DNA of 64,000 bases from NCBI GenBank assembly GCA_004764695.1, contig SMSO01000031.1, forward strand, positions 286,436 to 350,435. The letters are read 5' to 3'. Each line of letters opens with the position of its first letter. The first letter of the stretch is position 1. Positions 34,427-55,350 of the stretch are shown piece by piece. This stretch comes from Schizochytrium sp. TIO01. Lineage: Eukaryota; Protista; Bigyra: Labyrinthulomycetes. Under the pieces are notes generated by a model, which worked only from the letters and a program-made list of their open reading frames with translations, had not been told where the DNA came from and did no database searches. Position numbers and translations under genes: made by a program.

Positions 34427-35146
34427 AGAAGGTCGCTCACTTTATTAGTGCACACCTTTAACTGAAGCGCATTATCGTCTCAAGAGAGACGCGGAGTCGA
34501 TGAAGCTCGAAAGGGCCCGTGCCTACTTGTTCCTGAGACTCGTGCATAATCGCGCTCGTGCCGCGGTTCCCGAGGTAGACAGCTCGAGGCAGGAGCTAGC
34601 TGCTGCCCAGGACGCCAGCTTCTGAAGAACCAACCAGCCCCCTGAAGGAGCAAGAAACTCCAGTTCCAGGCCCAGTTCTCAGCCTGCGCACTCGTGAGAG
34701 GCGATAGACCTCCCTCTCTTTAGGTCCCTTCTTCTCATTAGTAATGAATGACGAGATAAGGGTGTGTACCCTGCTTGCGATGTTGAGAACGCAGCGTCAA
34801 AACCCAGAACAACGCCCCCCTCGAGGTCCCCTGGCTGCACAGGGTCGGCGCCGAGTCTGTCTGTGCCTGGCCACGGAAGTCGCTAGCAAGACTCCACGGA
34901 GCTGGTCTCCATTGTCTTGAGCTCGTGAATCTTTCTAGTTGTGTACAATTTTGTAAGGTAAGTATGTAGGGCGCCTAGTTTTGGAGAAACAACTGAAGAT
35001 ATGGTGTAATCTCGATGTAGATCTAGGGTGCAGACCGATGGAGCTCGACTTGCTCGAGCAGCCGGGGGCTCGGCTAACCTGGCGATCCCAGGCAGGGATC
35101 TTGTGCAGGCGCATGGGCGGGTCGGCTTCTTGAACGCACCCGGTTA

Positions 35147-35174
35147 GCTTGCTTGCTTGCTTGCTTGCTTGCTT
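35147..35174. repeat. (GCTT)7 microsatellite
   Basis: Direct reading. Confidence 0.9.
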
Positions 35175-35394
35175 CACGATGCTGCGACGATCGCGACGAG
35201 CACCTGTCTGGACAAAGCTTAGCGCGACGCTGGGCGCTACATTCAAGTTCTAGCCGCCTTGAAGAGCAGCCGCATATGCTCGCGGACGCTTGCGACTTCT
35301 CCACGCGGATCTTGGGGCTTGCCTGCCTGCTTGCCTGGCTTTGCTCGCACTCAGCCCACAAGTACTGCAAGGACTTGGGCGGGATGCCATCTTC

Positions 35395-36239
35395 GAAACT
35401 GTGTTGTCTAAGTTTGGTAGCACCACTGAATCTGTGTTTGCAACGTCGGCATCTAGCAAATATAAAAGAACATACAAAGACTTGATGTGCCTTTTGTACC
35501 TCCAAACATCTCCATATTTTATTCTCTTTGTAATCCTTAAGAATGAATTTTGCTTCGATGTAGCTTGTCTGCGTTCTATTATATCTTCACCTATTCTTCT
35601 AATTTCCGATATTGTTGTATTGCTTGTGTGAAAAAGATTGTATGAAACATTCAACATATCCTTAATAAATCGCTTTAGAGGCAAGTCTTGTATAATACCT
35701 ACTGCGATCCCAAGTGCCTTACAAAGAGAAATATGTATTGACCTTCGTTCTGCATTTCCCATCGATGCGATGGAGTCATCGGGTGAGCATAATTCTTTTG
35801 CATTACTCAATGCAGTGATGACATCAGTGACAGAATACCGTGACTCAACATGGAACCAGACTTTAAGACAGTGTAAAGCAACTCTATATCTATAGGGTGT
35901 TGTATCAATATAGAACTAAAATCATCCTCCAACTGAAAGGCTTTCTGAACATATGCACAAGCCTTAGTGTAATCACCTTCATAATCTCTAAGTAAAAAAC
36001 CTAACAAAATACAGGAGATTATAGTTGATTGCACAGTAACACTACCATAGTACCCGCTTAAAAAATTTCTCCAGATGATCAATGGCGTCATGAAATCTAT
36101 TGGGTTTTAAAAATAAGTAAACAATAGCCTCAATGGAACTCGCACGTTGTGCTTTAAAATGCTGAACGCAGTCACGTTCAAATACATTAACTGTCATTTC
36201 ATTACTGACTAGTTAGTCGAAAGCGCTCATAATGCTCAT
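35395..36239 (-). pseudogene. Disrupted ORFan at the left edge of the island
   Basis: MSIMSAFD*LVSNEMTVNVFERDCVQHF... has an in-frame TAA at 36213-36215, a frameshift in the T-run near 36060 and another near 35810. It runs into GC-rich flank at ~35395. Confidence 0.6.
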
Positions 36240-36262
36240 AGTAATGACGATAAAAAAGACCT

Positions 36263-36613
36263 CTTTCCCTCTTATAATACAATTAATATGAGGAATCGTA
36301 AGAATAAGGGGGTTAGCTTTGGAAAGAATGTTATTTGTTCTGATGTCTTGGTGACAAGTTCTCGCGAAGCTATCAGGACAAAAGTTGAAGAAAAACTCCC
36401 TGGGCTCTCTGGAGGCAGAGCCCTTCCACGAACTTTTCAAAAATGCGAAGCCACAAGCATCTTCTAGGAGCATTCGATTGAAACAGCTAGATCAGAGGGG
36501 GTAATTAAGAAAAAGACTTTTACATTCTGTCCCGAATGCACTCTAATTAATATGAAGAATCAGGAGCTTCTAAAAGCTTTCCCTCTTATAATACAATCAA
36601 TATGGGAGATCGT
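36263..36613. promoter_or_regulatory. Duplicated ~37-bp TATA-containing motif between divergent island genes
   Basis: CTTTCCCTCTTATAATACAATYAATATG at 36263 and 36577, partial copy AATTAATATGAAGAATC at 36545. The repeat is observed; promoter function is inferred. Confidence 0.5.
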
Positions 36614-36793
36614 TTTTCTTTGTTTTGGTTTGAAAAAAAAAGTGAAGGTGTTAGCTATTTCTGTACGAGTTTTGCGTCACTGGTGCCCTACAATTTGTAA
36701 ATTCATTTGACCATCAGAAGGATAAATTTATAGTAGTAAGCCATGTTATAAGTATAAATAAAATTAAAATGAAGCAAGGGACTGTCAATCTGA

Positions 36794-39700
36794 ATGGGAA
36801 CTAGTGGGAAATATATCGAAGGAATACATGCCTGTAATTCATGTGGTGCGTATCTGTTCGAGTGTGATGACTGCGGGATGTTGAACGATGCATCGCGAAA
36901 CATTTATGAACCGTGTATGTGCCCAACGAATGCATCTTTCTTTTGTAAGTGTGATGCTTCCCATGCAAGAAGCTCAGCATCAGCGCCGCATTTCAAAACT
37001 CGCGATGGAGAAGATATTCCTTTAAAAAATATCTCTTTAACTGGTCCTTCCATTCTTGAGCTTTTTGGGCGATCTCGAGTTGATAAAACTAGTGCATTGT
37101 TTGGTTCTAGTGACCAACGAGCCATTATCCCGTCTGATATTCCTTACAAAGAGGATGACGGCAGAAATTTAGGAGATAGTACATACCTTTCGGCACTTGG
37201 TGACTCCAAGCGAACTGGGAAAAATATTCTTCTTACGCTTAACCGAAGAGAAAATGACGAGTTATTGCACCGGAAGGAGGCTGAGTTGAAAAAGAATCAG
37301 TCGAATATAGCAGTCAGTATACCCTTTGTTGATTCCGTAACGCAGAGACAGAAAGAAGTTTTCTCATCGATGCTGGACGAAGTGAAGACAAAGGCAAGAG
37401 AGGAGAAAGTTGGTCTTGAAGAGAAAGTTCTCGAGCTTGGTAAAAAGATTGAAGCAGACGAGATGGTTCGTAAGGGTCTAGAAAACGACATTAGAATACT
37501 GAAGCATTCCTTAAAATATATCCAAGCAACCAAAAACAATCAGACTGAAATGCTGGACAAGCTGAACCGTAAACTTGTTCAGGTCTCACAGCAAAAGAAA
37601 GACCTATCTACAGAAAATTCGAAATTAAAATCCCAGATTCTAGATAACATGGAAAGATATTCTTTTGACGAGAGTGAGGGTGGTGATGACTCCGATGGTT
37701 CGATCGACCCAGAATCGTTTAGTAATGGTCTCGAGGCTCTAAAGGAAGGAAATTTTATTTCAGAGACAGATGCTACAAACATTACAAACATTCTTTTACG
37801 TACCGATACAGAAGATGAGGAAAACATAGTAAGACGTCTCATTTGGAAACTTTTGAAAGGTCAGGGTAGCGACGAGGGTAAGCATGGTTTTCTGAGCTCC
37901 ATTGATCCCTTAGAAAGAAGTAAAATAAAAGAAGCAGATTTCCAGCGTAAATTACAAGATCTATTCTATTCAGGAAACCTTGAAGAGGATGAAATGGAAG
38001 CCCTGATGGAAGTGATAGATGAATGTACATATGGTGAACAGAGAGACGCGATGCTGTCTATTCTGAACTCAGTGATTAAGCACTATGACGAAACGATCCA
38101 ATTCTCAGATAATGTTAGTATATGCTATCCAGAAATCAGCGGAGACACTACCAGACCTGAGAGAAAGGATATCGTAGAACTAATAGTGAAAAGTCTCAAG
38201 GAAATTTTCGGTTCAGCTTTCAGTTCAGATCAAATAGTGTCTGGTGTCGAACAAATGAAGACACTTTTAACGGAGATCAGTGCAGAAAACTTACAAACGT
38301 CCAATCTAATTGATTTAGTTACAAAGAAATTAGAAGAAATTAAAGATCTTCAAGACAAATGTGATACGAAGGATTTAACGAGCACTTTCACTGAAATGGT
38401 TGAATTAGTAGATGGTGTGAAAGAGTTTCATTTTGACTCTGAAAATAAAGATCCTGTGTGGATGCGACTTTTAACCTCAGGGGACGAACTACTTAATGAG
38501 AAGCTAACGACCTACGTTTCATTAGTAAACACGCTCAATGAGATTCTTAAACGCCCGGTGACTACCGAAAACGTTGCTCAGCTGAAGAGTCAACTTGACA
38601 ACCTAAAGACAGACTTCATCGAGGAAATCAAAACGATCGCAGGTTACAAGAAGAACATTGCTACTATTGCGAGCAAGCTAAACTCTGTGGAAAGCTTAGA
38701 ATTATTTGAACAAGTCAAAACTATTGAAACCAGACTGTCTGAGTTTAAAACAAATTTAGAAAGTGCTCAAACGCCAGTTCAAGAATTACCGGAGGAAAAC
38801 GAAGTTACTGAAGTAAATCCTGAAATACCACCTCCTCCACCTTCGAGAGCTATTCCAAATCCTCCCGCCCTGCAGAGAAACCTGCTTTCGTCGCGAGTCT
38901 ATACTTTGAAGGCACCAAAAGGTGAAATGAAATTGATCGAACCAGAATTGTACGATTTTCTGCTGAAGATTGCGGGTCTACCAAAGGAAGAAGGAAGTGG
39001 AGACATTCCTCACGTGAACAAGTCCCTTGATGAGTCTTCTTTAATGATTCCGAACCTACATGAGTTGACAACAGGATACTACCATCTCAACACTTTGTAT
39101 GAGAATACGAAGGCCCTCTTGAAAAAGGGAACCGAAGAAGCAAAGGAGGCCTTGGAATTTGCGAAGAATGTGACAACGTTCGGGCGTTGGTCGAATTACA
39201 CAGTCTATGCGAGATACATTATCTATAAGTTTATTCTTCTCCAAGATAAGAATAAGAAGACTACTCTGACTAGCTTGGTAATTGCTTTGGGATTAAGAAC
39301 AGAAGACGCAACCATCGATCGTCTCGCAGAAGCAATCATCTCAAGAATTATTGAGTCAGACACTATCTCATCTGAGCAAGAAATAGAACTCAAAGGTGCT
39401 CAAGAACAGGAGAGGCTTGCAAAGGAAAAAGAATTGATCCTTCAATCTACGGAATTAGTAGATCTTTCTTCATTGAGCAATGAGAATGTTCAAGAACTTG
39501 CAGTTCAGGAATTAGGATCGAATAATGTCATGACGTCTGCAATGACCCCTTTGGAAATTACAAAGCTTTTCCAGGATGATGGAGCTTCTATTGGTGCCCT
39601 TCGATTCCTCTTCTATGAGATGTTTACTGAGTATGATGATAACAATGTCATCATTGCTCCTGATGAGTCGGACATCAGTGATGATCGCTTAGAACCAATG

Positions 39701-41212
39701 ATTAGACAATCAAACGTCTTCGAATCTCAAAAGACAAAATCGAAGACTTCATTCGACATGAACTACCTCGAGAATAACAAATTTAAAAACCCAATTGTTG
39801 TTGAAGCTGATGACGAACTGTTACGTATCTTGGATTTGGTATTCAAGAAAGCAGATAGTTCGGATCTTACAGATGACGATATCGATAATCAGACATTTGC
39901 TTACTTTTACCGGTCAATGATCGGACCTTTTGCACAGTATAAGGACACAATTATCGATGGGACAGAAATGGAAAAGCTGGTCTCGTTAGTAACGGGACGC
40001 CTCCGAAAAATCTTGAATCTTCTTAAGCATAGTGAGCAAATTATGAATCAGAAGAAGATACAATTTGAAGAAATCGACTCACTACAGTTCACTAACAAAA
40101 GTATCAACGATTTTATTGATGAGATTAGATTTCTGTTGTTGAATCTGGTCTCTTTGAAGGAAGCGAACTTTACAGGTGCAGCGAAGAAAGAAGTAGAATA
40201 TTTGCATATTCTCTTCAGAGTAGTTGGAATTGAGGCAACCTTTAGAAATGTCCTGTATCGTCGCCTCTTCCTGATTGCCGATAAGAAAGAGCACCGAGGA
40301 ATCGTGGAGGAGGATATGATCCCCAATGGATTTTCAATGGTTGGTGCCTTGGATTTGGCGCCATTAATGCTTTTGAAAACAATTAATACACTTTGTGGGA
40401 AAAAGGAGTTCACAGATGACGAAGTGAAACAATACCTCGCAGTGGAAGTATTGACACTGATGAATTTCTTCACAGGGCACTTTGAAGGACATAATCGAGG
40501 TGATCTAGAAGAAATCTTTAGCAAGTCAGATGTTAAGAATTTCCGTACTATTGTCTCACCGCAAGAGGAAATGACGGCAAAGGTGACCCCGCTTGTCTGT
40601 CATGACGTAGTACCAGCACTCTTTAATAAGGATAGCCAAAACGTCACGCCTTTTGATGTAGAACTAAAAATGGCCTGGAAAAAAACTGATAAAAACTCAT
40701 TTGTGAACATTGGTGATCCATATGTTTCAAGAATGGAGTCTTTGAAAATCTTTCAGTTAATTCAACAAAGACTCGGCGATCTAAAACCAATTTTCCCTGA
40801 CATTGGACCGCAAATATCATCTGTTTCAGAACTTAAGACTCTTCAAATTTATGACACAAAGCAAGAGGAAGCTCAATCAGTGGAACTTGTCGGTGACATC
40901 TACACAAGAAGTGAAGAGAAAAAGTTTGCTCTGAAGTTCATTGTCAAGAATTTATTAGTTGAGAATGAATACTTCAAATTAGACAATCCCACTAAAAATT
41001 TACCCAAGGTCAACCCGAGTGCGTCACAACAGTCTTGTATTCTAACGGTATTTCTGAATGATTACATCAAGGTTTGCTTACACCAAGATTCGTATAACTT
41101 ACTTCCAAAACACAAATTTCAATCTGAACTTCAGTTTGCAGGAAAAATCTTTGATGAAGATGATGAGGAAATTGTATCTTTAGTATTGGGCATAATGAGG
41201 GAGGAAACTTAA
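36794..41212 (+). CDS. 1472-aa hypothetical protein: N-terminal Cys cluster, coiled coils, central Pro-rich linker
   Basis: Uninterrupted 4.4-kb ORF. CNSC..ECDDC..CMC..CKC at the N-terminus, heptad-rich aa ~150-290 and 490-660, PPPPPSRAIPNPP. Confidence 0.85.
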   Translation: MGTSGKYIEGIHACNSCGAYLFECDDCGMLNDASRNIYEPCMCPTNASFFCKCDASHARSSASAPHFKTRDGEDIPLKNISLTGPSILELFGRSRVDKTSALFGSSDQRAIIPSDIPYKEDDGRNLGDSTYLSALGDSKRTGKNILLTLNRRENDELLHRKEAELKKNQSNIAVSIPFVDSVTQRQKEVFSSMLDEVKTKAREEKVGLEEKVLELGKKIEADEMVRKGLENDIRILKHSLKYIQATKNNQTEMLDKLNRKLVQVSQQKKDLSTENSKLKSQILDNMERYSFDESEGGDDSDGSIDPESFSNGLEALKEGNFISETDATNITNILLRTDTEDEENIVRRLIWKLLKGQGSDEGKHGFLSSIDPLERSKIKEADFQRKLQDLFYSGNLEEDEMEALMEVIDECTYGEQRDAMLSILNSVIKHYDETIQFSDNVSICYPEISGDTTRPERKDIVELIVKSLKEIFGSAFSSDQIVSGVEQMKTLLTEISAENLQTSNLIDLVTKKLEEIKDLQDKCDTKDLTSTFTEMVELVDGVKEFHFDSENKDPVWMRLLTSGDELLNEKLTTYVSLVNTLNEILKRPVTTENVAQLKSQLDNLKTDFIEEIKTIAGYKKNIATIASKLNSVESLELFEQVKTIETRLSEFKTNLESAQTPVQELPEENEVTEVNPEIPPPPPSRAIPNPPALQRNLLSSRVYTLKAPKGEMKLIEPELYDFLLKIAGLPKEEGSGDIPHVNKSLDESSLMIPNLHELTTGYYHLNTLYENTKALLKKGTEEAKEALEFAKNVTTFGRWSNYTVYARYIIYKFILLQDKNKKTTLTSLVIALGLRTEDATIDRLAEAIISRIIESDTISSEQEIELKGAQEQERLAKEKELILQSTELVDLSSLSNENVQELAVQELGSNNVMTSAMTPLEITKLFQDDGASIGALRFLFYEMFTEYDDNNVIIAPDESDISDDRLEPMIRQSNVFESQKTKSKTSFDMNYLENNKFKNPIVVEADDELLRILDLVFKKADSSDLTDDDIDNQTFAYFYRSMIGPFAQYKDTIIDGTEMEKLVSLVTGRLRKILNLLKHSEQIMNQKKIQFEEIDSLQFTNKSINDFIDEIRFLLLNLVSLKEANFTGAAKKEVEYLHILFRVVGIEATFRNVLYRRLFLIADKKEHRGIVEEDMIPNGFSMVGALDLAPLMLLKTINTLCGKKEFTDDEVKQYLAVEVLTLMNFFTGHFEGHNRGDLEEIFSKSDVKNFRTIVSPQEEMTAKVTPLVCHDVVPALFNKDSQNVTPFDVELKMAWKKTDKNSFVNIGDPYVSRMESLKIFQLIQQRLGDLKPIFPDIGPQISSVSELKTLQIYDTKQEEAQSVELVGDIYTRSEEKKFALKFIVKNLLVENEYFKLDNPTKNLPKVNPSASQQSCILTVFLNDYIKVCLHQDSYNLLPKHKFQSELQFAGKIFDEDDEEIVSLVLGIMREET

Positions 41213-41380
41213 TTACCTCCCTTTGTTAAAATATCTTGAAAGACAGATTACAGGGAACTTTCAAATTAGGATTTAAATTAATGAAGTATCATATCTTCTT
41301 CTATTCTGTATGAACAATATTATTATTATTATTATTATTTAAAACTAAGGGAACCATGACCTTGAAATGACTTGGCATTA

Positions 41381-44035
41381 TTAGACAATCTCGTTGTTCT
41401 CTAGATGCGCCTCTGTATTGTTGGTCCTTGACAAAGTCCGGAAATCCTTTGCCGAGTCAATGCCAAATGCCTCCGCGAGCAGGTTAAAATCTTCTTCGCG
41501 GAGGGCTTCGCTGCGAGACTTCTTGCTGCGCTCCAGGTCGATAAACTTCACATTGCTAGCATCATCGACAACAATATTCCGCAATGCCACATCTCCATGG
41601 ATAAAACCAGCCTTATGGATCTTGTCAAGAGCTAAAGCAGCCTTCCAGTACAGTTCCTCAAGTCCACCGTACTCTTCTAATTCCTGCGTATGTAGATCGC
41701 ACAGTGATTTACCACACTGCTCCGTCGCAAAAACTACCAGGTTCAGAGTCTCGTCGAGACCGCAAGCTGTTACCCGTGGTACTACATCACCCTGCAGCGC
41801 GTGCAGAGCTGCGTATACTTGACCCTCATGTCCAAGTGCATACGCAGAATCATGCAGTGCGTAAGTCGTCTTGACGAAGCTAGAGACGCCGTTGATCATG
41901 ATGTCCGGATATCCTACGGCTTTACCGCCCAAAACAGTTCGCATATTGGGGGTCTCCAAGTTAGGGCCCAGTTGAAACGCAGCAAAAACGGCAGCATTTC
42001 TTTGTGGTCCACGATTTCTAGATCTGCGTGCCCTTGTGGAGTTGCCATTCCGACTTGTACTATTGTTAGTACTGGCGCTAGAACTGCCTTCCGAAGAACG
42101 TTGTTCGACTGAAACAACGACTTTGCCTTTTATAATAGTATCCACGACTGTTTTTGTGTCGTCACTTCCGTCCTTTAGCCATTCTAAGTTCATATTATCA
42201 CGGGTAGGGTTGTGATCTTTAAGTGCACGATAGAGAAAAACGAGCCACGCTTGACCAAGTGACCAGTTCCCTGGATTGGAACGACCTTCGTTATCGTTTC
42301 TATTTGAGTAGAAAGCTTCGCTCACCTTAACAGTCCGATTTTTGGAATCGCGACGGAAAAAGTACGTCTGCGGTCCATTCGTCAATGCACCAAAATTAAC
42401 GGCTGTAGACACCATGTAAAGACAAAGTTGGGCAACGGGACTTTTTATAGTACGAACAACCGGACTTCTCCTCTTCGCGGCGCGAGGAAGAGGTTCTCTC
42501 ACTTCAGTTTCTTCAATGACCTGTTGAAATTTCTTGTATTTATCAGGATTTTCCTTTTTTGCAACCTCTTTGTTTCTAGGTGCCCACTTTTCGAGGTAGT
42601 AGCTATTAATCAGATCAATAGGACGTTCCTTCAAGGTTCCAGGTGTCTTGCACTCGAGCATAGTCATCATTGCCTTGGTCAACAGGGTATTTAGCTTAGC
42701 AGATAGTTCTTCGCGCCTTTTTCCTCTCGTGTTAACCTCATCCCTCAGTTGCTCACGAATCTCCTCCTCTTTATTCACATCCGTGACAGATATTTGCACA
42801 TCAACCCTTCGATGATAAATAGACGCTGCAACTTGTATTGCTGCTTCCATTTTTGTGTCGATCTCAACGTTTTGGTTTTCCCCGACTGTTATTATGTCGG
42901 ATAAAACATCCGTCATTCCAACGTCTAAAATGTACCCCAATATCTTCATCATGTATCCATGGACTTCAGATTCTGGGAAACAATCATAGGATCTATCACG
43001 CAGAGCATAATATTTTCCAGTGAACATGTTCCTCTTTCTGGAGAACAGTTCAATTGCAGCATCAGACTCGGGATCCTTCTCAATTTCCCAACCTTCAGCG
43101 TAGAGTGGCATGAAGTATTCAGGGACCTCTGTCGTAGCTTTCGACATCTGTGATGTCTGGGCTTTTCGACCCTTCGGCTTCTCGCGTTGTGCGGAACTTT
43201 CGGCAGCGGACTGGCTCACAGCAACTCGCTTTGCTCTATCATCGAATGAGTCTTCGCGGTCCTCTTCGTCTTCGCGGTCCTCTTCGTCTTCATTCTCTAC
43301 GTCTTGACGGTTCCTTTTCGACGTTGTTGAAAAGATTCGCTTGGTTTCGATCGTTGCTGGATCTTGAGCGAAGTGATCCCAGATGGTTGCAGTGTCTTCG
43401 AAAGTAAGAATTTTCTTGATTAACTCGTCGCTGTAGGCGTCGTTTGCATCTTCATCTTCATCTGGAAGAAGGCTTCCTTCATTACGAAGCTGCTCAACGC
43501 GAGAACGCAGCTTTCTCTTCAAGCGTCTATTTTGAATAAGCTCTACCATCTGTTCGTCGTCATTAACGAGAGCGATGACCTCCTCCGCAGACATTTGGCT
43601 GATAACTTCCGGAGTCAGTGAAGTAGGACGGCTGGACGAAGAAGAGGGTTCCCAGGTGTTTGCGGACCTTATTTCCAGATCCGCGATTTTCTGAAGTAAT
43701 TCGTCTTTACGCTTTCGATTTTCCTTTTTACTTTTCCCCGGAAGAAGAAGACTCTCTGTCGCTAACGAAGTAATGTGGAGCTGAAGATCTCCGAGAAGGT
43801 CGTCATCTTGAATAAGCTCTAGCATACGTTCGTCGTCGTCAACGAGAGCGATGAGCTCCTCCACAGACATTTGACCGATATCTTCCTGAGTCAGTGGAGG
43901 AGGAGGACGGCTGGACGAAGAAGAGGGTAGCATGGCTCTCCCTGCTGATGCGACGGCAGAGATACCGCGTCTAAGTACCGATCGCTTGCCCCTTCCAGCA
44001 TCACCGCCACGTCTTTGGTCATCGTTGTCAGCCAT
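41381..44035 (-). CDS. Crinkler-like effector: duplicated N-terminal helical unit + PD-(D/E)xK REase-like domain + small kinase domain
   Basis: MLECK...VAQLCLYM...FGALTNG.QTYFFRR (CRN REase pattern). HEGQVYAALHALQGDVVP...IHGDVALRNIV...FIDLE (kinase). First ATG is at 44035. Confidence 0.75.
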   Translation of the reverse strand: MADNDDQRRGGDAGRGKRSVLRRGISAVASAGRAMLPSSSSSRPPPPLTQEDIGQMSVEELIALVDDDERMLELIQDDDLLGDLQLHITSLATESLLLPGKSKKENRKRKDELLQKIADLEIRSANTWEPSSSSSRPTSLTPEVISQMSAEEVIALVNDDEQMVELIQNRRLKRKLRSRVEQLRNEGSLLPDEDEDANDAYSDELIKKILTFEDTATIWDHFAQDPATIETKRIFSTTSKRNRQDVENEDEEDREDEEDREDSFDDRAKRVAVSQSAAESSAQREKPKGRKAQTSQMSKATTEVPEYFMPLYAEGWEIEKDPESDAAIELFSRKRNMFTGKYYALRDRSYDCFPESEVHGYMMKILGYILDVGMTDVLSDIITVGENQNVEIDTKMEAAIQVAASIYHRRVDVQISVTDVNKEEEIREQLRDEVNTRGKRREELSAKLNTLLTKAMMTMLECKTPGTLKERPIDLINSYYLEKWAPRNKEVAKKENPDKYKKFQQVIEETEVREPLPRAAKRRSPVVRTIKSPVAQLCLYMVSTAVNFGALTNGPQTYFFRRDSKNRTVKVSEAFYSNRNDNEGRSNPGNWSLGQAWLVFLYRALKDHNPTRDNMNLEWLKDGSDDTKTVVDTIIKGKVVVSVEQRSSEGSSSASTNNSTSRNGNSTRARRSRNRGPQRNAAVFAAFQLGPNLETPNMRTVLGGKAVGYPDIMINGVSSFVKTTYALHDSAYALGHEGQVYAALHALQGDVVPRVTACGLDETLNLVVFATEQCGKSLCDLHTQELEEYGGLEELYWKAALALDKIHKAGFIHGDVALRNIVVDDASNVKFIDLERSKKSRSEALREEDFNLLAEAFGIDSAKDFRTLSRTNNTEAHLENNEIV

Positions 44036-44666
44036 TTTTCCTTGTTTCGGTTTTGCAGGGCTATTTGCTTTTTCTTTTGCTGGAGTGAAGGCGCGTGCAG
44101 CAGTGGAAACAGAGGTAGTGTGATGTGAGGGGGAAAAAAGAAGGAAAACTTTACTTTCGTCTATCACTGTCGATAGAATTAAATCTACTCTACTCAAAGT
44201 CCTCTAATGACACTAGATAGTACCTTCCTAGTATCTACTTGACTCCTTTCTTTTCTTTTTTTTTTTCAATTAAAAAATAAAATAAAAGATAGTTTGCCTA
44301 ATTGATTAAGTATCTGAACTGTTTAAAAAAAAATAAGTCGTCTTTTTTTGTCTACCAGAGAGATGGGAAAACACAAAAAAGTATAGGTGTGTGGGTTGTG
44401 TATTCTTCCCCCGCTCGACTTGAGAAAAGCGTACCCCTGTTTCATAAAAGGGTAGCTCGTAGGATAGTTGAGTCATTCTGAACTCCGAGAATGCGGTTCC
44501 AATAAATCAAGAATTAATGAAGGGAGTGGAAAACTCCTAATTGACCAGTAAACTAAACTAAACTATTCATTTCTTTTCTTTTCTTTTCTTATTAAAAACT
44601 AAATAGTCGACTCCCAGATATAAGGTTGGTTACCTTTTTTTTTTCTCTTTCGTGTTTTCAATCTTG

Positions 44667-45752
44667 TTAACTTGCTACTTTACAATAAAAAGTAGCGTGA
44701 GGGTAGTCTTTCCATAATGAAATAAGGTAGGGGTGCATAACAAGGATCCCATCATAGATGTGTCGTCCTGAGTTATAGACTATACTTGGTGGGTTTATTG
44801 TAGAGAACCTGTTGATAAACATGTCATAAATAGTGACTTTTGCACCTTCCATAGTAAGCATTTGTGCAATTTCGGAAATTGGAGATTCATCGTGCTCTGA
44901 AGCCCCTGGTTGATTTCCGAATCCTACTATCAGGAATGCCTTTTGGTGTACTTTATCAAGGTCGCCTGAGCAGTATCTATTTACGATATCTTGGAAGATG
45001 AAGCGCGGGCGTAGACAGAGCTGTTCAATAGCTGTGGTTAATAAGGGAAACTTCTCTTCACCACCGATCAGCGATGCAAAGTTATGCTTGATTCCTAAAG
45101 ATGGGTGGTCATTTTGATAATTGGTCCAGATAAAGTTCGAGCCTTCAATTGCATCACGCATCGATATATCTTTGCTAAAATTGGCAGAAAACTCATTGAT
45201 AGCAGCTTGAATAGCAGCTCTTTTTGCCAAGTCCAGAAGAGTTGCGCACTCAGCAGCTTCTGCAGTTTCTGTAATGTAGATGTGAGTATAAAACAATGAT
45301 AAAAATGGCAAAATCACTTGTGCAGCTTCTCTTGAGTTTGCTCCTAACAGTCTTGGTGAATCACGCGGTGCTTCAAATGGAAGCGAGCGACACCGATGGA
45401 TAATGTTTGGGGAATATGCGATGGGAATTTCACCTGCAGTTGCCTTAACAAACTTCCCAACTGTACCAACTGGGATTACAGTTTCTATTATGACCATCCG
45501 GGGCTTGACGTTTTTGATAATTGGGATGGCACAGAGCAATGTTTGAATACTAACTGATGGCTCAAAATCCTGTCCAATACATACTAGACATATATCGATA
45601 TTTTCCAACTTTGCACTTGCATTTCCCAGCTTTATGTCATAAATTGTAGCAGCTATGTCATCGTGGTTACTAAAATGATCAAGATTGTTTTTAATCATGA
45701 TTCGACTTTGACTGCTTTCGCCAATATTTGCAATTAATAAAACCTTTTGCAT
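44667..45752 (-). CDS. Divergent UDP-glucose/GDP-mannose/UDP-ManNAc dehydrogenase-family protein
   Basis: ETVIPVGT (cf. STVPVGT), IAYSP, AEAAECATL...AINEF (cf. AEMAKL..N...NEL), IVGFGNQPG..HDESP (cf. LGLAFKP..DLRESP), GAKVTIYD. Confidence 0.75.
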   Translation of the reverse strand: MQKVLLIANIGESSQSRIMIKNNLDHFSNHDDIAATIYDIKLGNASAKLENIDICLVCIGQDFEPSVSIQTLLCAIPIIKNVKPRMVIIETVIPVGTVGKFVKATAGEIPIAYSPNIIHRCRSLPFEAPRDSPRLLGANSREAAQVILPFLSLFYTHIYITETAEAAECATLLDLAKRAAIQAAINEFSANFSKDISMRDAIEGSNFIWTNYQNDHPSLGIKHNFASLIGGEEKFPLLTTAIEQLCLRPRFIFQDIVNRYCSGDLDKVHQKAFLIVGFGNQPGASEHDESPISEIAQMLTMEGAKVTIYDMFINRFSTINPPSIVYNSGRHIYDGILVMHPYLISLWKDYPHATFYCKVAS

Positions 45753-45968
45753 GATCTCCCGACAATAACCATTAGCACACTTGCTATATAAAGGAATAGT
45801 ACTCTCCTTATATAAAGATGATAAATTACTTTCAAGTACAAGATAGGAAAAATAGAAATCCTCTTAATTCTTATATGTAATGGAAAGCTTTTCACTAAGT
45901 TCAGTGTGGGAGACTTGTAAGAACACAGTAGCATTTTTCCTCAATTATTTGCATTCCTTCTTTAACGA

Positions 45969-46418
45969 ATGAATGATGTTTACTACGTACCTGTAGTAGA
46001 GACCTTGCATGCAGGAACGTTAGTCTCCAAGTTTTTGTGTCCTATCAAAGTTCAATTATTCCGTTCATCCTCGGATAATAATTTGTGGTGGAGGTACACA
46101 AGATCTGCTCCAGAAATCCGTGCTGCGAGTCAATCAAGAATATTGACAGTTCCTTGTCCGGGAGAAGACGTACTTTTATCACACTATCTCGCGCATGCGA
46201 TACACTCGTTTTATCTCTTCAACGAAACAATGAACCTGGAGCGGATAGGTAAATTCTCATTGAGTAATTTTACTTTCACTTATTCTATAGATCATGGTGA
46301 GATCATCTATGTTCCTTTTCTTCCCTGGCATGCAGTATCAGTAACCTTTAAAAGTGGTGCTGGTGATGATCTTGAGTCTGGATATATGTCCATCAGTGTT
46401 TGTTCGCCTATGGTGTAA
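45969..46418 (+). CDS. Hypothetical protein (ORFan)
   Basis: 149-aa ATG-started ORF filling the gap between island genes; no recognisable motif. Confidence 0.6.
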   Translation: MNDVYYVPVVETLHAGTLVSKFLCPIKVQLFRSSSDNNLWWRYTRSAPEIRAASQSRILTVPCPGEDVLLSHYLAHAIHSFYLFNETMNLERIGKFSLSNFTFTYSIDHGEIIYVPFLPWHAVSVTFKSGAGDDLESGYMSISVCSPMV

Positions 46419-46552
46419 CTAAGAATGGTCAACAGAACAGCTGGTCTTACAGTGAAGCATAAGCTTTTAATTACTTTTTTTCTTCTTTAAGCTTTAAACC
46501 ATTAATAATAATAATAATTATAGTAATAATATTAATTATAACAAGTAAGACC

Positions 46553-47365
46553 ATGGAACATATTATTCGAACAGAAACAAGCTTAAAGCTTTACAGGTTT
46601 ATTATTCGAGTAAACATAACTTTGGATGAGTTTGCTCATACTCACCGGAACTGTGTCCTTTCAGTCTCCAGTGACTGGCGATGTACGTATTACGAAAAGG
46701 CCTTCACGATGAACATCTTCGATGCCAAAAAGTTACCCTACCCTGCGCTCGTTTGCATGGTTTTTACAATGACAATGGAGTCCGACGCATTCATTCCAGT
46801 ATTTGAATCGTTGTTTGGAGTTACAAAAGAAGATATTGATAAACCGACCTTGGTAAATTGGGTAGAGAAGTACTATACACCTCACAAGCCCCTTGATCTC
46901 GAGGGTTTGTTTCTTAGCTTGAACTCCTTGGCATCAGTTTCACTAAAAGTAAAAGGTCGAAAACAAAAACCACGGGTACTGCCCTCATATGATGTTCATA
47001 AAAGTGAAGAGCTTGAAGGGTATGACAGTGATTATAACAACAGGAGGGCAAATCAATTTGCAAAGTCACTAACTCTTTCTACCAAAGAGGATGACGGCTC
47101 TAGTCCAGCCCTCTCAATGGACCAGCAATCATTCTGTGCACTCGTAGTACATCCATTTCCAGAAGCGACACATCTTGCAATCGAGGTCTTTTCGAGCGGT
47201 GTGCTCAATGTAGCAGGGATCCCTACAGATGAAATCTTTGATCACTTAACACATTATGTAAATACGAAGCTTGGTCCTTTGATGGAACAACACGCTTTAA
47301 AGAGTAACGAGTTAAACGAAAGAGAAAGTGAGGAAGAAGATCGGTGGGATTTACTTTTTGGATAA
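46553..47365 (+). CDS. Divergent TATA-binding-protein-like protein
   Basis: C-terminal LAIEVFSSGVLNVAG matches the TBP repeat motif (xIFSSGK+x+TG). It is preceded by SF.ALVV-type strands and followed by a helix. The rest of the protein is too divergent to be the host TBP. Confidence 0.6.
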   Translation: MEHIIRTETSLKLYRFIIRVNITLDEFAHTHRNCVLSVSSDWRCTYYEKAFTMNIFDAKKLPYPALVCMVFTMTMESDAFIPVFESLFGVTKEDIDKPTLVNWVEKYYTPHKPLDLEGLFLSLNSLASVSLKVKGRKQKPRVLPSYDVHKSEELEGYDSDYNNRRANQFAKSLTLSTKEDDGSSPALSMDQQSFCALVVHPFPEATHLAIEVFSSGVLNVAGIPTDEIFDHLTHYVNTKLGPLMEQHALKSNELNERESEEEDRWDLLFG

Positions 47366-47914
47366 GCAAGCTCTATCATACCAACACGCCTGAAGTATTG
47401 CGTCTGCGACATCATCCTGTTTTGCTTTTGGTACTTTAGCCATATCTTTTGGGAAAAGTTCATGGGCTTTAACAATCGCAGCAGCTTTATTTGCCCTTCG
47501 ATTGTTTTCTGCACCACGAACGACCTTCCCTGCGAGCTTCCGTGAAGCAGCACCTGTTTTGAAAAATGTCTTGACTGACTTTGAGTGAACGATTTTGTAT
47601 TCAAAACCTTCACAGATGCACATAGAAACGATTGAGTACTGCGCAATGTACATTTTCAGTCTCATCTGATCCTCAATGAGGATTATACTCGCTTCTTTGA
47701 GCATAGGGTAAATCTTTGAGGTTTCCTTGTTAAACATAAGGTTGTAGATCCCCATTGGAATATTTCTTTGCGACTTCAGCGCCTTGAGGGATGGTGCGAA
47801 GGCGATTCGATCACAATAGACCATCTTTTTGGTTGAGCTATCATAAAGAGCTACGCCAATGTTTATGATTCTGATGTCAATGCTGAAGATTAAGCTACTT
47901 CTTCTGTCTCCCAT
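47351..47914 (-). CDS. Viral-type RuvC/A22 Holliday junction resolvase
   Basis: FSIDIRIINIG (DxGxxN motif), ILIEDQ, K-rich helix and KQDDVADAILQA: the acidic motifs of poxvirus A22/NCLDV resolvases. Overlaps the TBP-like gene tail-to-tail by 15 bp. Confidence 0.85.
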   Translation of the reverse strand: MGDRRSSLIFSIDIRIINIGVALYDSSTKKMVYCDRIAFAPSLKALKSQRNIPMGIYNLMFNKETSKIYPMLKEASIILIEDQMRLKMYIAQYSIVSMCICEGFEYKIVHSKSVKTFFKTGAASRKLAGKVVRGAENNRRANKAAAIVKAHELFPKDMAKVPKAKQDDVADAILQACWYDRACLSKK

Positions 47915-48005
47915 AATTTTCAATCAGAACTTGTTCATCTTGGATTCAATATATAAGTACAAATGTGAGGGGAATGTCCAGTAAGGGCACAAAAGAGTTG
48001 GACTA

Positions 48006-51000
48006 ATGGTTTTACAGACTATAGTCTTGTTGGTTGTCTTGTTCCTATGCAAGACCAACGCACAGGAAGAGACCCCTGCGCCAACTGCCGAATATGACCT
48101 AAGTATTTGTGAAAGTTCCTTAAGTGTTGGTAACTATGCGACTATTTGGGCTAGTCCCGACCGGAATGTGATGTATGGATGGGGAGCTAATACCCTTAAG
48201 GAACTCAGTAGCGCTAGTGACCCCTCGGCATCTTTCATCGAGCCTTTCAAGATCAATCACTCGACTATTAGTTCGCCGATGCATCCTAGAGAGGCACTTT
48301 TCGCGTGCGTCCTCGATGGACTAACCTATTAAATCCACTGCGTCGGTTCAAATTCAGGATACCTGATCTCAAAAGAAACAACTAGCAGTACGAGTACAGT
48401 GTTCACCGAGTTCACTGAGCTGTCGGATTTTACAAGTGAGTACAGTTCCTTTGCAGTATCAAGGAACTCCTTGTGTGCAGTTACACTTAATCAAACTGTC
48501 GTAACATGTTCGGGTACCAATAATTTGTATCAAAACGGAAGAGGTACAACCTCAAACGGTCGCGACGTTCCACCTTTCGACACCCTAAGTTATGAAACGA
48601 ATCTCCAAGAAGGGGTCACAATCAAGAAGTTAGAATCTGATAAGATTGAGAATCACTTCTGTGCACTTCTTAGTAACAACACTGTCACGTGCTGGGGCAG
48701 CAACACAAATTATGCACTTGGAATCACCGGGTCGACGAGCCTTCCAAGTCCAACGTGGGTCGACACAGAAGAACAGGGTAACATTAAAGACATTACCTTG
48801 GATGAACAAAATATCGGACTTATTACTTTGGATGGTCGTTTCCTATTTACAGGGCAAAATAAAGAAGGAATGTACTCAAACGATGTTGATTCAGGTAGCT
48901 ACATCGAAACTGGACCTGTTGAAGTCTTTGATTCAGGTAACGACAACATTGCTTGTATCTTCATGTATAGGAACTTCTGTCTTCGAAAGACAAATGGAAC
49001 TGTTTTTTGCAAGGGTGAGAATGCCTATGGACAATTTTATAGTTCCAAAGTGAACTCATTCTCCAACTTCATTGAATCGGACAGAATCACTGCCGAGACT
49101 GTTGTATCAGTGAATTCTCAAGTTATTTGTGGTTATAATCTGACTGATGATACAGTTAGTTGCTGGGGAGCCAACAACTACCCACAATTTGACGTAAGTG
49201 GAACTGTCCCGTCGACACCAGTTCTTATGGAAGGTGTTTCATGTGCGCCTCTACCACCAACTATGGCACCGACACTTTACCCAACGATGTCTCCAACTGT
49301 CTATCCAAAGAGAGAACCTACTACACCTTTCCCAACAACTTCAGAGATGACTTGCGGAGTGAACATTGCAACTACTACCGCAGGTGCTTCCTACTATATT
49401 AGTGAAGAACGCAACGCCGTAATTGCTTGGGGCAATGGCTATAATGAGGTTGGATTATTGGGTTTGGGGAGAGATGTTGGAGACATTGACTATCACCCCC
49501 CGACGAAGATACCTGGCTCTTATGTTAACCCAGTCCAAATTTCTGTTGAACCGACCAGTAGTTTCGCTTGCGTCCTTGATGGATATGACGATTCAGTTCA
49601 TGGCATCGGAAAGGACCCCACTGGGGCTATTACAGGAACAACGAATGCTATTCTGTATGAGATGACCCGTTTTACTGCGATTGATAATGATGAAACGATC
49701 AAAAACATTGATGAAATTTCAGTAGGAATTTCAAATATGTGTCTGGTTATTAATAACAGGACTGAGATAAAGTGTATTGGAGGAGCTGCCTATGGTATGA
49801 ATGGCGCAGGTGTTACTGGGACCACGTCAATTCCAGTATATGCTATCAACAGTGCTGCTAGCGCCGGTGCAAAAATCATTCAGCTTGAAAACAACATGTT
49901 CACATATTGTGCACTTTTCAGTAACAACACACTTTATTGTTGGGGTGACAATGACAACAATCCTATTGGACTTCCTGATTATATAAGTGGAAATAGTCAG
50001 CTTTCCCAAATTTTGATTCCTGACATGAGCTTCACTAAAGTCACTTTCGGACAGCACAACATTTGGGGACTTGGAACTGATGGGAAAATTTATGCTTCAG
50101 AAAAGAACACCTTCCAGGTAATTACGAGTGAGTGCTGAAAGGTGATACTGATTAGCGTGAGGTTGACTGTAAGAATGAAGGCAAGAAGCTTGATGAAGGT
50201 TATAAGAAGGTCGATTTAAGTGTTAGCGAACTGCTGTCCTGAGGAATGAAATCCAGGACAGATGGATTCATGTAGTAATTAGGGAGATTAAGACATTCTT
50301 GAATGTGGTTAGAGATAATCGATGGGGTTAGGTTATCCAACCTTCTCCAACCATTGATCCAAGCTAAACCAAGCTTGGGTATCCGTGATGTGCATTTACA
50401 CTTCTAGTTCTTGGCTTCAGCATCCTCATGAGTCTGTCTGCCTATTCTTGTTCTAATGTAAACCTTATCTCTATTGGGTTTTACAAAGGGACACCAAGAA
50501 CTCTAGCAATGTCTTGTCCACTAGTTCCTTCGATTGGAGATCTCAGCAGTGAGCTAGCGACGAATGTTTTCACTTCTGAATGGATTGTCGTTGATAATTA
50601 CAATATTGAGCCTTGGGCATTTGAACAAGGTTTCTGTGTTAAGAAACGGGACAAAAAGACATACACATCACTTCGCAGATTTGATCGAAAATACGAGGAT
50701 GCCAAATCTAAGACAGTTCCGGAGCTCTAGTAACCTATATGTTGCGCTTTTCGAAGACGGGACTGTTAAGACCTGAGGATATAATGCTCCTTTGCGGATT
50801 GGAAGTTCATCTATGGGAACGAACGTGAAGACTCAGCAAGTAATTGAAGAAGCCTATTGCTTACCAAAGTTTGCTCCGTCGATGGCACCGACTCAAATTC
50901 CAACAGAAGCACCTACCTCAGGTCATTCTTGTTCAACGGAAGGGCAGTCCAATAACTTCATGGGTGCTACTGTCAATACGAATCTCAACCAGGTCTTGAT

Positions 51001-52030
51001 GTTTGGAACGGATTACTATGGCAAGTATCTATCGGAAAATGGTCAAAAGAGTGGTACTATTGCATTGTATGATTTGATCTCAAGCCTGGACTACGGTTCA
51101 CGTGCAGAAAGCAAGTTATCCCCGGGAAATAACCACGCATGTTTAATTGACCCATCAGATGACTCTGTTTGGTGTTGGGGAACTGGTAGCTACGGAAGTT
51201 TGGGTAACAAGAACAGTGCATCTTCATCAACACTTGCTTACCCAACAAAAATTAACATTGAAAGTCCCGGACAAGGCAAAGATGTCGTTGTTACAAACGC
51301 AGCTACCTTCTTCTTGCGCAATGACAACCTAACCGTGAAAGTCATGGGTAAAAACGCCAACAATATGTTTGGAACTGGAGGAAGTAATGCTATACAAAGT
51401 ATGTTTACTGTTCAAGATCTAGGTGACCGAGTAATTAAACGGATATTCGCCGGTGGGCCATATTCTGTTTGCCATATGTACGAAGACAATCAAGTTGCAT
51501 GTGCTGGAAGCACTTACGGATTCTGTCATGAAGCACAAGTATCAAATTCTGTAGTCACATATTGTACAGGTAAATTTGCAAAAATTAGTGACTTTAGCAA
51601 CCCCTCAAACTTTAACAGCTGTGTAGTCAATATGGAAGGGCAGATCGTTTGTGCTGGTAACACGAACACTTACGGACAAATTGACCCATCCGCTTTTGGA
51701 ACAGCAGATTTTACCGGAAAGGTTATTGAAGGTATGGGAAATGATAACAAATTCGTTTTGCTTTCAAATGACTTCGCCTGCGGAGTCAAACAAAATTCAG
51801 GGGACGTTATTGCTGGGGCAGAAACAATTATGGTGTCTTAGATGGAGATAGCACGAATTTAGATGCAATTTATACAACTCCGATTAAGATCCAAAATATT
51901 ACAGGAGTTACTGCCATTTGGGGAAGAAAGGCACTGTTTGCTAGAACGAAGAATGGTGACCTGAAAACTTTCGGTGAACATAATGGTAATTACTTTAAGA
52001 GTTTGACAGGTGTTTATGCATCACTCTGGA
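48006..52030 (+). pseudogene. Secreted RCC1/BLIP-II-like repeat protein (three modules with PTxAPT linkers), pseudogenised
   Basis: Signal peptide MVLQTIVLLVVLFLCKTNA and repeated HxC....V.CWGxNxxG motifs. Lesions: TAA 48330-48332, insertion 50133-50548, frameshift ~50665, TGA 50774-50776 (KT*GYN), frameshift ~51808 (GDV/YCWGRN). Confidence 0.85.
50133..50548. mobile_element. Solo LTR (416 bp) with 5-bp target-site duplication
   Basis: Starts TGCTGA and ends TCAGCA (TG...CA inverted ends). GTGAG is duplicated at 50128-50132 and 50549-50553. Excision restores the frame VITSE/LATNVF. Confidence 0.85.
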
Positions 52031-52398
52031 ACATTTGTACACATAAGGTATTCTTCGTTACAAAAGGCCTTGGACGTAGAGTAGGTTGCGGCTGCTTCTT
52101 TGCAGGTGGCGTGATCACGACTGGTGCAATATACATCTGGACCCTCTAGAGGACATAAGTAGTCATGAAAGCCATCAATTGTCTTCGGAGGATCAAACAT
52201 TGTAGCAAACATTTGGACTGTAAGGTCAAGATCCAATCCAGTCATCTTCGACACTGCAATTTCAATACTATGGTGGTGTGAAGATAAAAATGAGGGAACA
52301 TGTTCAAAGGAGTCAGAATGTGAAACTAAGATAGCGTCAACAAACATTTGCAAAGTCTCTTGGACAGGTCCCCTAGTCATTGAAGAGTAGTAATTCAA
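52021..52398 (-). pseudogene. ORFan fragment
   Basis: 125-codon open stretch with non-ATG start, abutting the truncated RCC1-like gene and an opposite-strand fragment. Confidence 0.4.
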
Positions 52399-52890
52399 CC
52401 AAAATTAAAAAGGCAACACAAACGATCGTAAACGAGCTTGTCAAAAGTCAAACGAATGAGACTCTTAAAACAGGGACTAATTTGACAGTCTTTATTGATG
52501 GTTCAGAATCAGTCACTCTTGACGCAGACTTAATTTATAGTCTTGGCGGAGACGAAGAGCTTCTCGGTGCTGCATTGAAGGAGCTCGTTTGTAACTACTG
52601 AGAAAGAGTACAAATACATCTTTGCGATATGACTTTGCAAGGTTAAGAGGAGCACCCATCTGATGCAACAGTGTCAAAAGGTGTCATGATGGCATGATGG
52701 GTGACGTATAACACTGCATGTGACTCGCCCATGGAACGAAGGGTATCAAGCAAGCATCAAAAGGAGTTTGCAAAGCAAAATCTGCAGGCAGACCCGAAAT
52801 ACCAAAGCGACCAGAAGCACTTGAATCTATCAAGCACATTCAACAAGACAACCACTATCATCTAAGACATTTCCCCAAATACCTCTAAGT
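52380..52890 (+). pseudogene. Decayed ORFan with several in-frame stops
   Basis: The frame of ORF 52380-52601 continues as protein-like sequence through about four stops (VCNY*ERVQ...QG*EEHP...MA*WVTY...). Confidence 0.45.
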
Positions 52891-52892
52891 AA

Positions 52893-53459
52893 TCATAACC
52901 ACGTCTCATTACTACCCATTGCATGTAACTGACTACCCTCATTCATTCCTTCTGCGTATCGGAGGTAATAATAAGTCTGCTCAGTTTCCAATGTTGCACA
53001 CATCAGTGTAAGAGTTGCAGGTATCATGACTAGGGCCTCATAAATACTCATCGAGATGAACTCTGGTGTCTGCATAACTTCTTTGAGTGATACATGAAAG
53101 TTATGTCTATTTTCATTGTGGCCTGTGCGAAGTCCCATTGGACCAGAATTATACTCATGAAGTTTGTTTAGCTCAGTCCCATTCATGATTAATGCCATAA
53201 TAAACTCTGTTAGTCTCGCTACTTCAATGATCATCGGAAGTCCCATCATTATAAAGATTGAAAATGTTGCTGCAACGTCTCGCTTGATCTGAGCATCAAG
53301 TGGGTTACTAGCTTGGTACTTAAATAATATGTAAGACAAAACACTTATTATAGAATCTCCGTGACCATCACTAAAATTAAACCAATTTCTTATTACAGAC
53401 TTTGAAAAATGCCGATCACAAAAAGTCACCGTTAGGCGGACTTGCATTATAATCGACAT
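52893..53459 (-). CDS. Hypothetical protein (ORFan)
   Basis: 188-aa ORF with an A-rich context before the ATG (AAAAATG), as for compact viral genes. Confidence 0.6.
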   Translation of the reverse strand: MSIIMQVRLTVTFCDRHFSKSVIRNWFNFSDGHGDSIISVLSYILFKYQASNPLDAQIKRDVAATFSIFIMMGLPMIIEVARLTEFIMALIMNGTELNKLHEYNSGPMGLRTGHNENRHNFHVSLKEVMQTPEFISMSIYEALVMIPATLTLMCATLETEQTYYYLRYAEGMNEGSQLHAMGSNETWL

Positions 53460-53548
53460 TTTTCTTTTCTTTTAGAAGTCTTATCAGTGGTCCGACTTTG
53501 TTTGAATTCATAATGTGAACACTCATCCAGGAGAAAATGTAAACGTAA

Positions 53549-54232
53549 CTAGCTGTTACCTTTACGGACTCGGTGTTTAGGGTAGGACTTAGCTTGTTGT
53601 CTGTAGGAGTCAATCATCGCGAAATTGATCGGGAAATTAAGGTTACCGTCTTTCCCAAAACCATGTCGATTTGAATATGGGCCCTTACGAGACATAACAG
53701 TTGCAGACTTCTCTGAAATCAGTAGCATTTGATAAAGTTCATTCATCTGCTCATCACTCAGATTTGTGTGCTTACCAGAATCTGTAGGGTTAAGAACCGG
53801 CAAAATGTCACCTAAGTTTACTCCCTTCGATGCCTTTAGGGATTGGTTATGAGAGTCAGCATTGGGCTGAAAGTGTCCAGTTTTCAGAGGCTCTTCCCAC
53901 TGATTAAATTCATCATAAAGTTTGTACCTATATTCATAGAGGTTGTTAATCTCTTCAAGATACAAAGATGGGTTCCCAACAGCAATTTCCTTCACAATTT
54001 CGAACAGGTCAAAGTTTGCAAAGTCTTCTTCACCTGCTTCTTCAACTTTATCTACTGAGAAGTATTTTTTGAACCAGGAAAGTTGCTCTGGTAACTCGAC
54101 CATACTTAAAATTGTATGACTGATAGTTTTCATTTGTTTGACATTATTAAGCTCTAATACTGTTTTAGTCGAGCTGTCATAATTTAAACTGCTCTTCAGA
54201 AATACCGCCATTCCATAACGCACATTACACAT
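53549..54232 (-). pseudogene. ORFan, probably 5'-truncated at the right island junction
   Basis: 227-codon AT-rich ORF that begins exactly where composition switches to the GC-rich flank. Confidence 0.5.
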
Positions 54233-55350
54233 GAGCTCGACATGAATTTCGACCAGCCCAGTGCTGACGCGAGATGACCATTGCGGTCATCGTCATCATG
54301 ATGTCCATCATTATGATGATGGACATCATGGTAATGTGCATCACGACGACGACGACAACGAAGACATCTTGGGCCGCGCAGCCCTCTCTCTAGATCTTCA
54401 AGCCCTGCTGCCAAGTCGAGGCAGCTCGCTCGCTAGCTTCTGTGGCACGTCGCCAATTCATGACAGCAAACAACCCGCGAGCTCGCGGCTTCGCCTTCTC
54501 AAGCCCGGCCGCAATTCAAGGCAGCGAGCTTCCGCCGGGTATCGGCAGCTCCTTTCTACCCATCGCGGTGCAGCTGCTTTGGATTTGGCTTCACTCAGTG
54601 CCTCAAAATCTCGCCTCTGCTCCCAGCTTTCGTGTGAGCAAGCACGCCGTTGCTTCTGATGTTTTCACAATCTCGGGCCCAAGCTTGTCCACGGTTTCCG
54701 CCATCGCTAGCTGAGCTAGCTATAGCTACAGCTGGTCACGAGCTGGCCAGGTCCGCAGGTTCGAGGTGTGGAGCCCAGCTCATCGCCATGCACCTCGATG
54801 CACAAGTCGTCGCGGCTTTGCTGACGCTGTTCAAGTTGCTCAGTTCTCTGGTCCTGCAGAACTTCGAGGTCTTCTACGCCTCGGGATCGACGAGCTCCAC
54901 GTCTTGGCCGTCGCTCTTGCTTATCTTGTGCTGTGGAGCAGCGTTTCCGCGCATAGCAGCCTCTTGGAACACGAGCCCATGAGGAGAAGAACCCTTCACA
55001 GGCAAGGCCGACCGCCTTGTCCGACGTGGAGATAGATTCCACTCCACTCGGTCCTTTCACGCTACCGATGCAGTCCTCATGGCGTTGGAGAGCTCTGGGC
55101 TGCTGCTTTCTTCAGCTTCAAGTCGTGGCTGGCGAAGCGTGTCGGGAGCGGAGCCGCGAGGATGGTAATCGGTTTGTTGGGAACCTAAACTGCAAACCGT
55201 AAGCAAACGAACGAGGGCAGTCGAGACAAAGTCGAAACCACAGAAGCTGCCGCATCAAGCTCTCCGCATCACTGCCTGGCGCCTGTCAGGTTAGATTTGC
55301 CTTCATTTCCTCGTTTCTTGGACCTCATTTGACTCCCGATCTCAATAAAT

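Follow-up and report, generated by a model that had tools for sequence, protein, structure and literature searches.

Among the eukaryotic Crinkler/RHS (CR) effectors, the combination of a header, a restriction endonuclease-type (REase) domain and a kinase is reported to make up about a sixth of their C-termini, and such effectors are likewise found in free-living eukaryotes, bearing unrelated helical headers (PMC5289972). A similar build is known from the Spok meiotic drivers of fungi; in SPOK3 the nuclease kills and the kinase protects (PMC6660238), the killing by SPOK1 acts through DNA (PMC9972908), and a spok gene has been described as curbing the loss of a dispensable chromosome (10.64898/2026.10.04.756499). 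For AurliV-1 and AurliV-2, mirusviruses of the thraustochytrid A. limacinum, five kinase-fold proteins are recorded in each gene table (PMC12606086, files 3 and 4). Here, an REase-plus-kinase gene is described from Schizochytrium sp. TIO01, at 41381..44035 (minus strand) of a 64,000-nucleotide stretch of contig SMSO01000031.1 (the window), where it lies in an island of low guanine-plus-cytosine (GC) content that is most likely a mirusvirus fragment. Its product, P0001, is tentatively read as a captured, Spok-like, one-protein toxin-antidote that aids viral persistence, a reading to which a probability of about 0.4 is given.

The gene is an open reading frame (ORF) of 884 amino acids (aa) running from an ATG at 44035 to a stop at 41381 with no internal stop, which confirms the uninterrupted ORF noted in an earlier, sequence-only reading of this DNA. 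The motifs named in that reading (ExK, QxxxYM, GxLT, HGDVALRN and DLE) were all located, as ECK at aa 461-463, QLCLYM at 536-541, GALTNG at 549-554, HGDVALRN at 813-820 and DLE at 833. Its call of a Crinkler/RHS-type REase joined to a kinase was likewise supported, and its own refuting condition did not arise: the central domain (42206..43138, minus strand, aa ~300-610) models as a PD-(D/E)xK fold, with restriction nucleases as the structural matches of the domain folded alone. The catalytic set comprises E461, K463, Q536xxxY540 and a PD aspartate that is ambiguous between D419 and its alternative D412, and the domain contains two helical insertions (aa ~420-455 and ~470-510). In the nuclease alignment, conservation reaches 56/58 rows for E461, 54/58 for K463 and 53/58 for the D419 column, while the counts for Q536 (53/58) and Y540 (51/58) are circular because rows were picked partly by the Q/Y motif. 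The Pfam family HSDR_N_2 matched the nuclease at E 3e-4, below the cut-off; Foldseek returned kinases alone for the two-domain model and nothing under E 1 for the nuclease against viral models. The minimal Rio/Bud32-like kinase (41426..41983, minus strand, aa ~685-870) holds K722, E737, H813-G-D815, N820 and D833. The nuclease is predicted to be DNA-cutting.

The N-terminal part holds two copies of a helical header repeat (43652..43927, aa ~37-128, and 43376..43651, aa ~129-220, both on the minus strand), which are identical at 40 of 92 residues and are followed by an acidic/basic low-complexity linker (43139..43375, minus strand) whose basic clusters are putative nuclear localisation signals. 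The 92-aa repeat is new: among 158 proteins compared it was found only in P0001 and a relative, P0002, which has a single copy, and a Pfam search with the repeats gave nothing under E 1. As in CR effectors, a header precedes a restriction-type nuclease and a minimal kinase with its catalytic residues; P0001 differs from them in its new repeat, in its place in a viral island and in having neither a ubiquitin-like (Ubl)/LxLFLAK header nor a hydrophobic leader. Specifically, aa 1-300 were not matched by the Crinkler header PF20147 at E<=5, no LxLFLAK motif was found, and neither a hydrophobic leader nor a signal peptide was seen (N-terminal hydropathy maximum 0.59). The designation as a Crinkler effector therefore holds for the REase-plus-kinase architecture and not for the header or the signal peptide, and Spok-like intracellular action fits better than that of a secreted Crinkler.

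The likeness to Spok comprises an HsdR-like PD-(D/E)xK domain with QxxxY, an unstructured linker, an ELK-type kinase, a variable N-terminal repeat and carriage on a large mobile element; SPOK3 is described with the domain order, best nuclease match and QxxxY of P0001 (PMC6660238). Atlas feature similarity linked P0001 to fungal clusters at 0.95 and to a SPOK2_N cluster at 0.94. Unlike Spok, P0001 has no Cys/His cluster in the sequence ahead of its kinase, and the connection is seen in Atlas features only, with no Spok family among the Pfam matches of P0001 and its relatives. The host is also a stramenopile, the carrier is virus-derived and not a Starship, and killing and resistance are known for Spok alone.

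This architecture is already known, and its link to mirusviruses is new relative to the literature covered. In PMC12606086, the PANTHER family PTHR37171 'Meiotic Drive Suppressor Kinase' is assigned to ORF729, ORF460 and ORF459 of AurliV-1, which lie in tandem at 208216-214706 and encode 627-628 aa (file 3), and to ORF95 (715 aa, 191971-194118) and ORF915 (610 aa, 278941-280773) of AurliV-2 (file 4). Comparison by eye, over at most 400 characters per table cell, revealed a nuclease signature of the D..ExK..QxxxY type ahead of the kinase, in the forms RTD..EHK..QVYVYM..YGVLST, RSD..EAK..QLFSYM..FGVYTT and, over the available sequence, NPD..ELK..RQL. In the article, these five genes are treated as protein kinases; the words 'toxin', 'crinkler' and 'meiotic' are absent from its main text, and 'nuclease' occurs five times, in methods passages where visible. 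ORF459 and ORF915 are the kinases named there in the top ten by expression for their respective viruses, and the ORF729 protein as the one not raised by starvation. The five share with P0001 a place in mirusviral DNA, a kinase-fold C-terminus, a nuclease signature (by eye) and a thraustochytrid host; they differ in their N-termini and subfamilies, in length (610-715 aa) and in setting, since they belong to viral genomes that are complete and have expression data, while P0001 sits in an 18.9-kb decaying fragment.

Related genes appear in two mirusvirus genomes that are complete, and this speaks for a genuine virus-effector link, which the sequence-only reading had singled out as notable. Among the open-licence papers and preprints covered, no link of the nuclease-kinase architecture to mirusviruses was found; one preprint describes the exchange of multi-copy 'SPS1' kinases, which may be of the same family, between host, mirusviruses and a skiavirus (10.64898/2026.07.28.741200). 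A further virus-borne nuclease-kinase is possibly the Pandoravirus DUF5898 protein A0A2U7UEV6 (BFVD), which gave an alignment of 423 columns with the two-domain model at E 2.4e-5 and matched the nuclease alone at E 3.7; DUF5898 lies outside the 23 Pfam families matched by 78 relatives of P0001.

The placement of the gene in a viral island is borne out by change points in GC at about 35389 and 54250, which mark the ends of a low-GC stretch (35389..54250, ~18.9 kb) flanked by ordinary eukaryotic genes, and by two ORFs within it that are akin, by eye, to AurliV-1 genes (PMC12606086, file 3). A viral TATA-binding-protein (TBP)-like ORF (46553..47365, plus strand) shares WRCT, DLEGL and HPFPE/RPFPE..IALSIF/LAIEVF..G with ORF762, and a Holliday-junction-resolvase-like ORF (47351..47923, minus strand) shares NIGVA, LIE.QMR, N.RANK and KQDD.ADA.LQ with ORF181. 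The two are convergent neighbours here as in AurliV-1 (130631-132918), and RCC1-like genes and low GC are further traits held in common with the Soporavirales AurliV-1 and AurliV-2; in contrast to those viruses, the island has clearly distinct sequences, lies between host genes and is apparently multi-copy. Given the likeness of its TBP and resolvase to those of AurliV-1, the most likely source of the island, as a fragment, is a further Soporavirales-like mirusvirus. The TBP-like ORF also resembles viral clusters of the nucleocytoplasmic large DNA virus (NCLDV) type at Atlas scores of 0.90-0.92, weak by the tool's own flag. The resolvase-like ORF matched Ydc2 at E 0.18; a word-index protein search with it returned one 99% copy and nothing else, and an IMG/VR pattern scan, which needs near-exact words, returned none. 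No HK97 capsid, portal, terminase or polymerase was recognised among the ORFs of this fragment with Pfam and NCBIfam, which may lack mirusvirus models, and no target duplication of at least 6 bases was found at the island ends. The island is decaying, as its RCC1-like gene (48006..51841, plus strand) contains an in-frame stop near 48330, a 421-bp repeat insertion and further breaks.

Part of 35001-45000 was present in 20 of 24 listed sequencing runs (12 studies; one possibly the source), and at least half of its words in 14 of the 24. Contigs of four runs (X3, X6, X13 and X14) were compared with the window, with 15 of 87 joints and 12 of 76 gaps listed. The right island junction near 54250 is spanned by contigs of X6, X13 and X14, which gives a covalent link to host DNA on that side. 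Relative to its flanks, the island has a depth of ~3-6x on single long contigs and 4.6-7.7x on summed bins; depth is not copy number, and it is from the raised depth together with many divergent contigs that the island is taken to be apparently multi-copy. A clonal episome is unlikely to be the sole source of the extra depth, since there are hundreds of divergent contigs as well as deleted copies. More than one copy links the P0001 gene to the island: an X6 contig with a depth of 25 covers 40018-41654, and X3 and X14 have a deleted form in which 41918 is joined to 47601. A form with one header repeat and the same upstream DNA was found in X6, X13 and X14 (three of the four runs; joint 43643-44043) and retains an in-frame start, by eye. 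The cover of X6 is almost nil at 44139-46139, with no joining contig among those listed, and was not used as evidence.

In composition, the gene departs from its surroundings. Its GC of 0.472 and GC at synonymous third positions (GC3s) of 0.438 exceed the values of all nine other island ORFs tested (0.383-0.423 and 0.297-0.411), so that the impression of a GC-richer frame was correct. The comparison of codon usage with host and island genes that had been proposed was also run: the codon log-ratio (island over host) is -0.009+-0.014 for P0001, +0.037 to +0.084 for 9/9 island ORFs and -0.015 to -0.22 for 11/11 host ORFs. Its value near zero, unlike that of the island, makes P0001 a newcomer to viral DNA.

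A set of 1.84 billion representatives contains 144 relatives of P0001 at E<=0.001, which is beyond chance. Those with names come from Hondaea fermentalgiana and, in one case, from an assembly of Durusdinium; one assembly of this genus is reported to contain thraustochytrid DNA (10.64898/2026.07.28.741200). The sole close relative is P0002 (52% identity), which was also the only protein returned by word-index searches; it keeps E461/K463 and all kinase residues, and its QxxxY motif has E in place of Q. A quick tree built on 48 rows (careful search incomplete; long-branch warnings given; ~100 shorter or kinase-only matches omitted) groups P0001 and P0002 with two Hondaea proteins at a Shimodaira-Hasegawa-like approximate likelihood ratio test (SH-aLRT) value of 96. 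The Pfam Crinkler N-terminus was found in 1 of 78 aligned relatives. A pattern scan of phage records yielded none, which shows little, as near-exact words are needed. P0001 thus belongs to a family also present in thraustochytrid assemblies, and its acquisition looks recent. The sequence-only reading had posed a choice between a virus-carried effector and an inserted host effector, and each stands in part, the latter on the thraustochytrid family and the recent look, the former on the related genes in two mirusviruses. In a separate observation, the first 99 residues of the Hondaea protein GBG27963.1 (P0008) are a fragment of the P0001 kinase type and are followed by a Rad54-like helicase; this is probably a decayed copy fused by annotation.

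Under the toxin-antidote reading, a virus would have captured the gene recently from the thraustochytrid gene pool, before integration. The nuclease would cut DNA in the nucleus, and the kinase, while freshly made, would neutralise it; a daughter cell or zoospore from which the viral genome (or the island) was lost would receive the nuclease with no renewed protection and die. Such killing would help the virus, and afterwards its integrated copies, to persist. A one-protein poison-plus-antidote role is suggested because two persistent mirusviruses appear to possess strongly expressed genes of the same build, and it would account for expression that stays high throughout persistent infection, for repeated capture and for a frame left unbroken within a decaying, repeated island. 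As the AurliV genes seem, by eye, to be non-orthologous both to P0001 and across the two viruses, captures would have been repeated. The wider proposal, that thraustochytrid mirusviruses have repeatedly captured Spok/Crinkler-type nuclease-kinases as single-protein addiction modules that kill cells on loss of the viral genome, the island being a third independent capture that the same drive amplified and preserved in the host chromosomes, is rather doubtful.

Several points weigh against capture and addiction. Both the codon use of P0001, with its log-ratio near zero, and its grouping with two Hondaea proteins of unestablished viral nature fit insertion after integration equally well, and composition does not separate capture shortly before integration from insertion just after it. 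By eye, the AurliV genes appear not to be orthologous to P0001, having different headers, with the AurliV-1 copies resembling another Hondaea subfamily; recurrence is therefore indicated rather than inheritance. Pattern scans for relatives in IMG/VR, which needed near-exact words, and in JGI metagenome contigs returned none, both at low sensitivity. A 1-base gap at 42146, seen in contigs of three of the four runs among the gaps listed, may mean broken P0001 copies, compensating changes being possible. Finally, addiction would require an asymmetric stability of the two activities that is unexplained even for Spok (PMC6660238).

The first alternative, judged unlikely, is that a selfish CR gene of the host lineage jumped into the viral DNA after integration and was copied with the island, so that the virus never carried it. 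This would accord with a composition intermediate between island and host, with nearest named kin in Hondaea (one on a 498-kb contig), with a 59-aa fragment of 80% identity that points to older, decayed copies, and with a host repeat that did insert into the same island; in Phytophthora, CRN genes beside a giant-virus insertion are reported as host passengers (PMC8204020). An 11-bp direct repeat flanks the gene at 41276 and 44512, but it was equalled in 132 of 2000 shuffles and terminal inverted repeats are absent around the gene, leaving a transposon border unproven. Moreover, no empty-site joint at the gene was found among the joints listed plus joint 43643-44043, and two mirusviruses with complete genomes appear to have five such genes between them.

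It is also unlikely that P0001 is a virus-carried weapon, used for late degradation of host chromatin or for cleaving the DNA of viruses in the same cell (superinfection exclusion), its kinase serving as an on/off switch. In CR proteins, toxicity is ascribed to the REase domains and regulation to the kinases (PMC5289972), several persistent viruses are co-resident in thraustochytrids (10.64898/2026.07.28.741200), and AurliV nuclease-kinase peptides are reported from supernatant fractions (PMC12606086). However, ORF729 is not raised as virion production rises and may not be part of the virion, and high expression in fed cultures with particles in ~3% of cell sections fits maintenance better. 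Least probable is an inert passenger with a dead or silent nuclease, whose frame is intact only through the youth of this copy: the two large insertions, the ambiguous PD aspartate, the E for Q in P0002 and, elsewhere among the copies, a deletion and what may be frameshifts would suit it, but the catalytic E/K pair and all kinase residues are kept in both proteins, the 2.65-kb frame is intact beside a broken RCC1-like gene, and the one-repeat variant retains its start.

Re-annotation of the five AurliV genes and P0001 as nuclease-bearing is new relative to the literature covered, and would stay so were the addiction idea mistaken. In cultures of thraustochytrids, mirusvirus episomes endure for decades; the mechanism of their genome maintenance is called unclear in a preprint (10.64898/2026.07.28.741200), and an old report, quoted in another, held virus-free isolates to be unobtainable. 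If the most expressed 'kinases' of AurliV-1 and AurliV-2 are nuclease-kinase toxin-antidotes, persistence could be tested directly in a host that grows in culture, viral persistence would be tied to fungal meiotic drivers and Crinkler effectors, and industrial docosahexaenoic acid (DHA) strains carrying mirusviruses would be concerned.

Convergent with the P0001 gene lies a 1472-aa ORF (36794..41212, plus strand) with no family match and island-like codon use; it has a Cys-rich N-terminus and long coiled-coil-like stretches. A nucleotide-sugar dehydrogenase-like ORF (44667..45752, minus strand) matched TIGR03026 at E 4.6e-13, below the cut-off. The very high-copy 421-bp repeat that splits the RCC1-like gene (50127..50553) has a 6-bp target-site-like duplication, a depth in the thousands and empty-site joints in all four runs, and is a probable active host miniature inverted-repeat transposable element (MITE) or short interspersed nuclear element (SINE). 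Two further island stretches, 36136-36801 and 52650-52910, show raised depth and many differing contigs and are probably other repeats. Outside the island, an ankyrin protein in the flank shows 99% identity to a protein from a marine-protist transcriptome, labelled with taxon 87120, presumably in error for 87102 (Aurantiochytrium limacinum), and a long imperfect inverted repeat at 62574-63217, with arms 84-88% complementary, is a possible foldback element.
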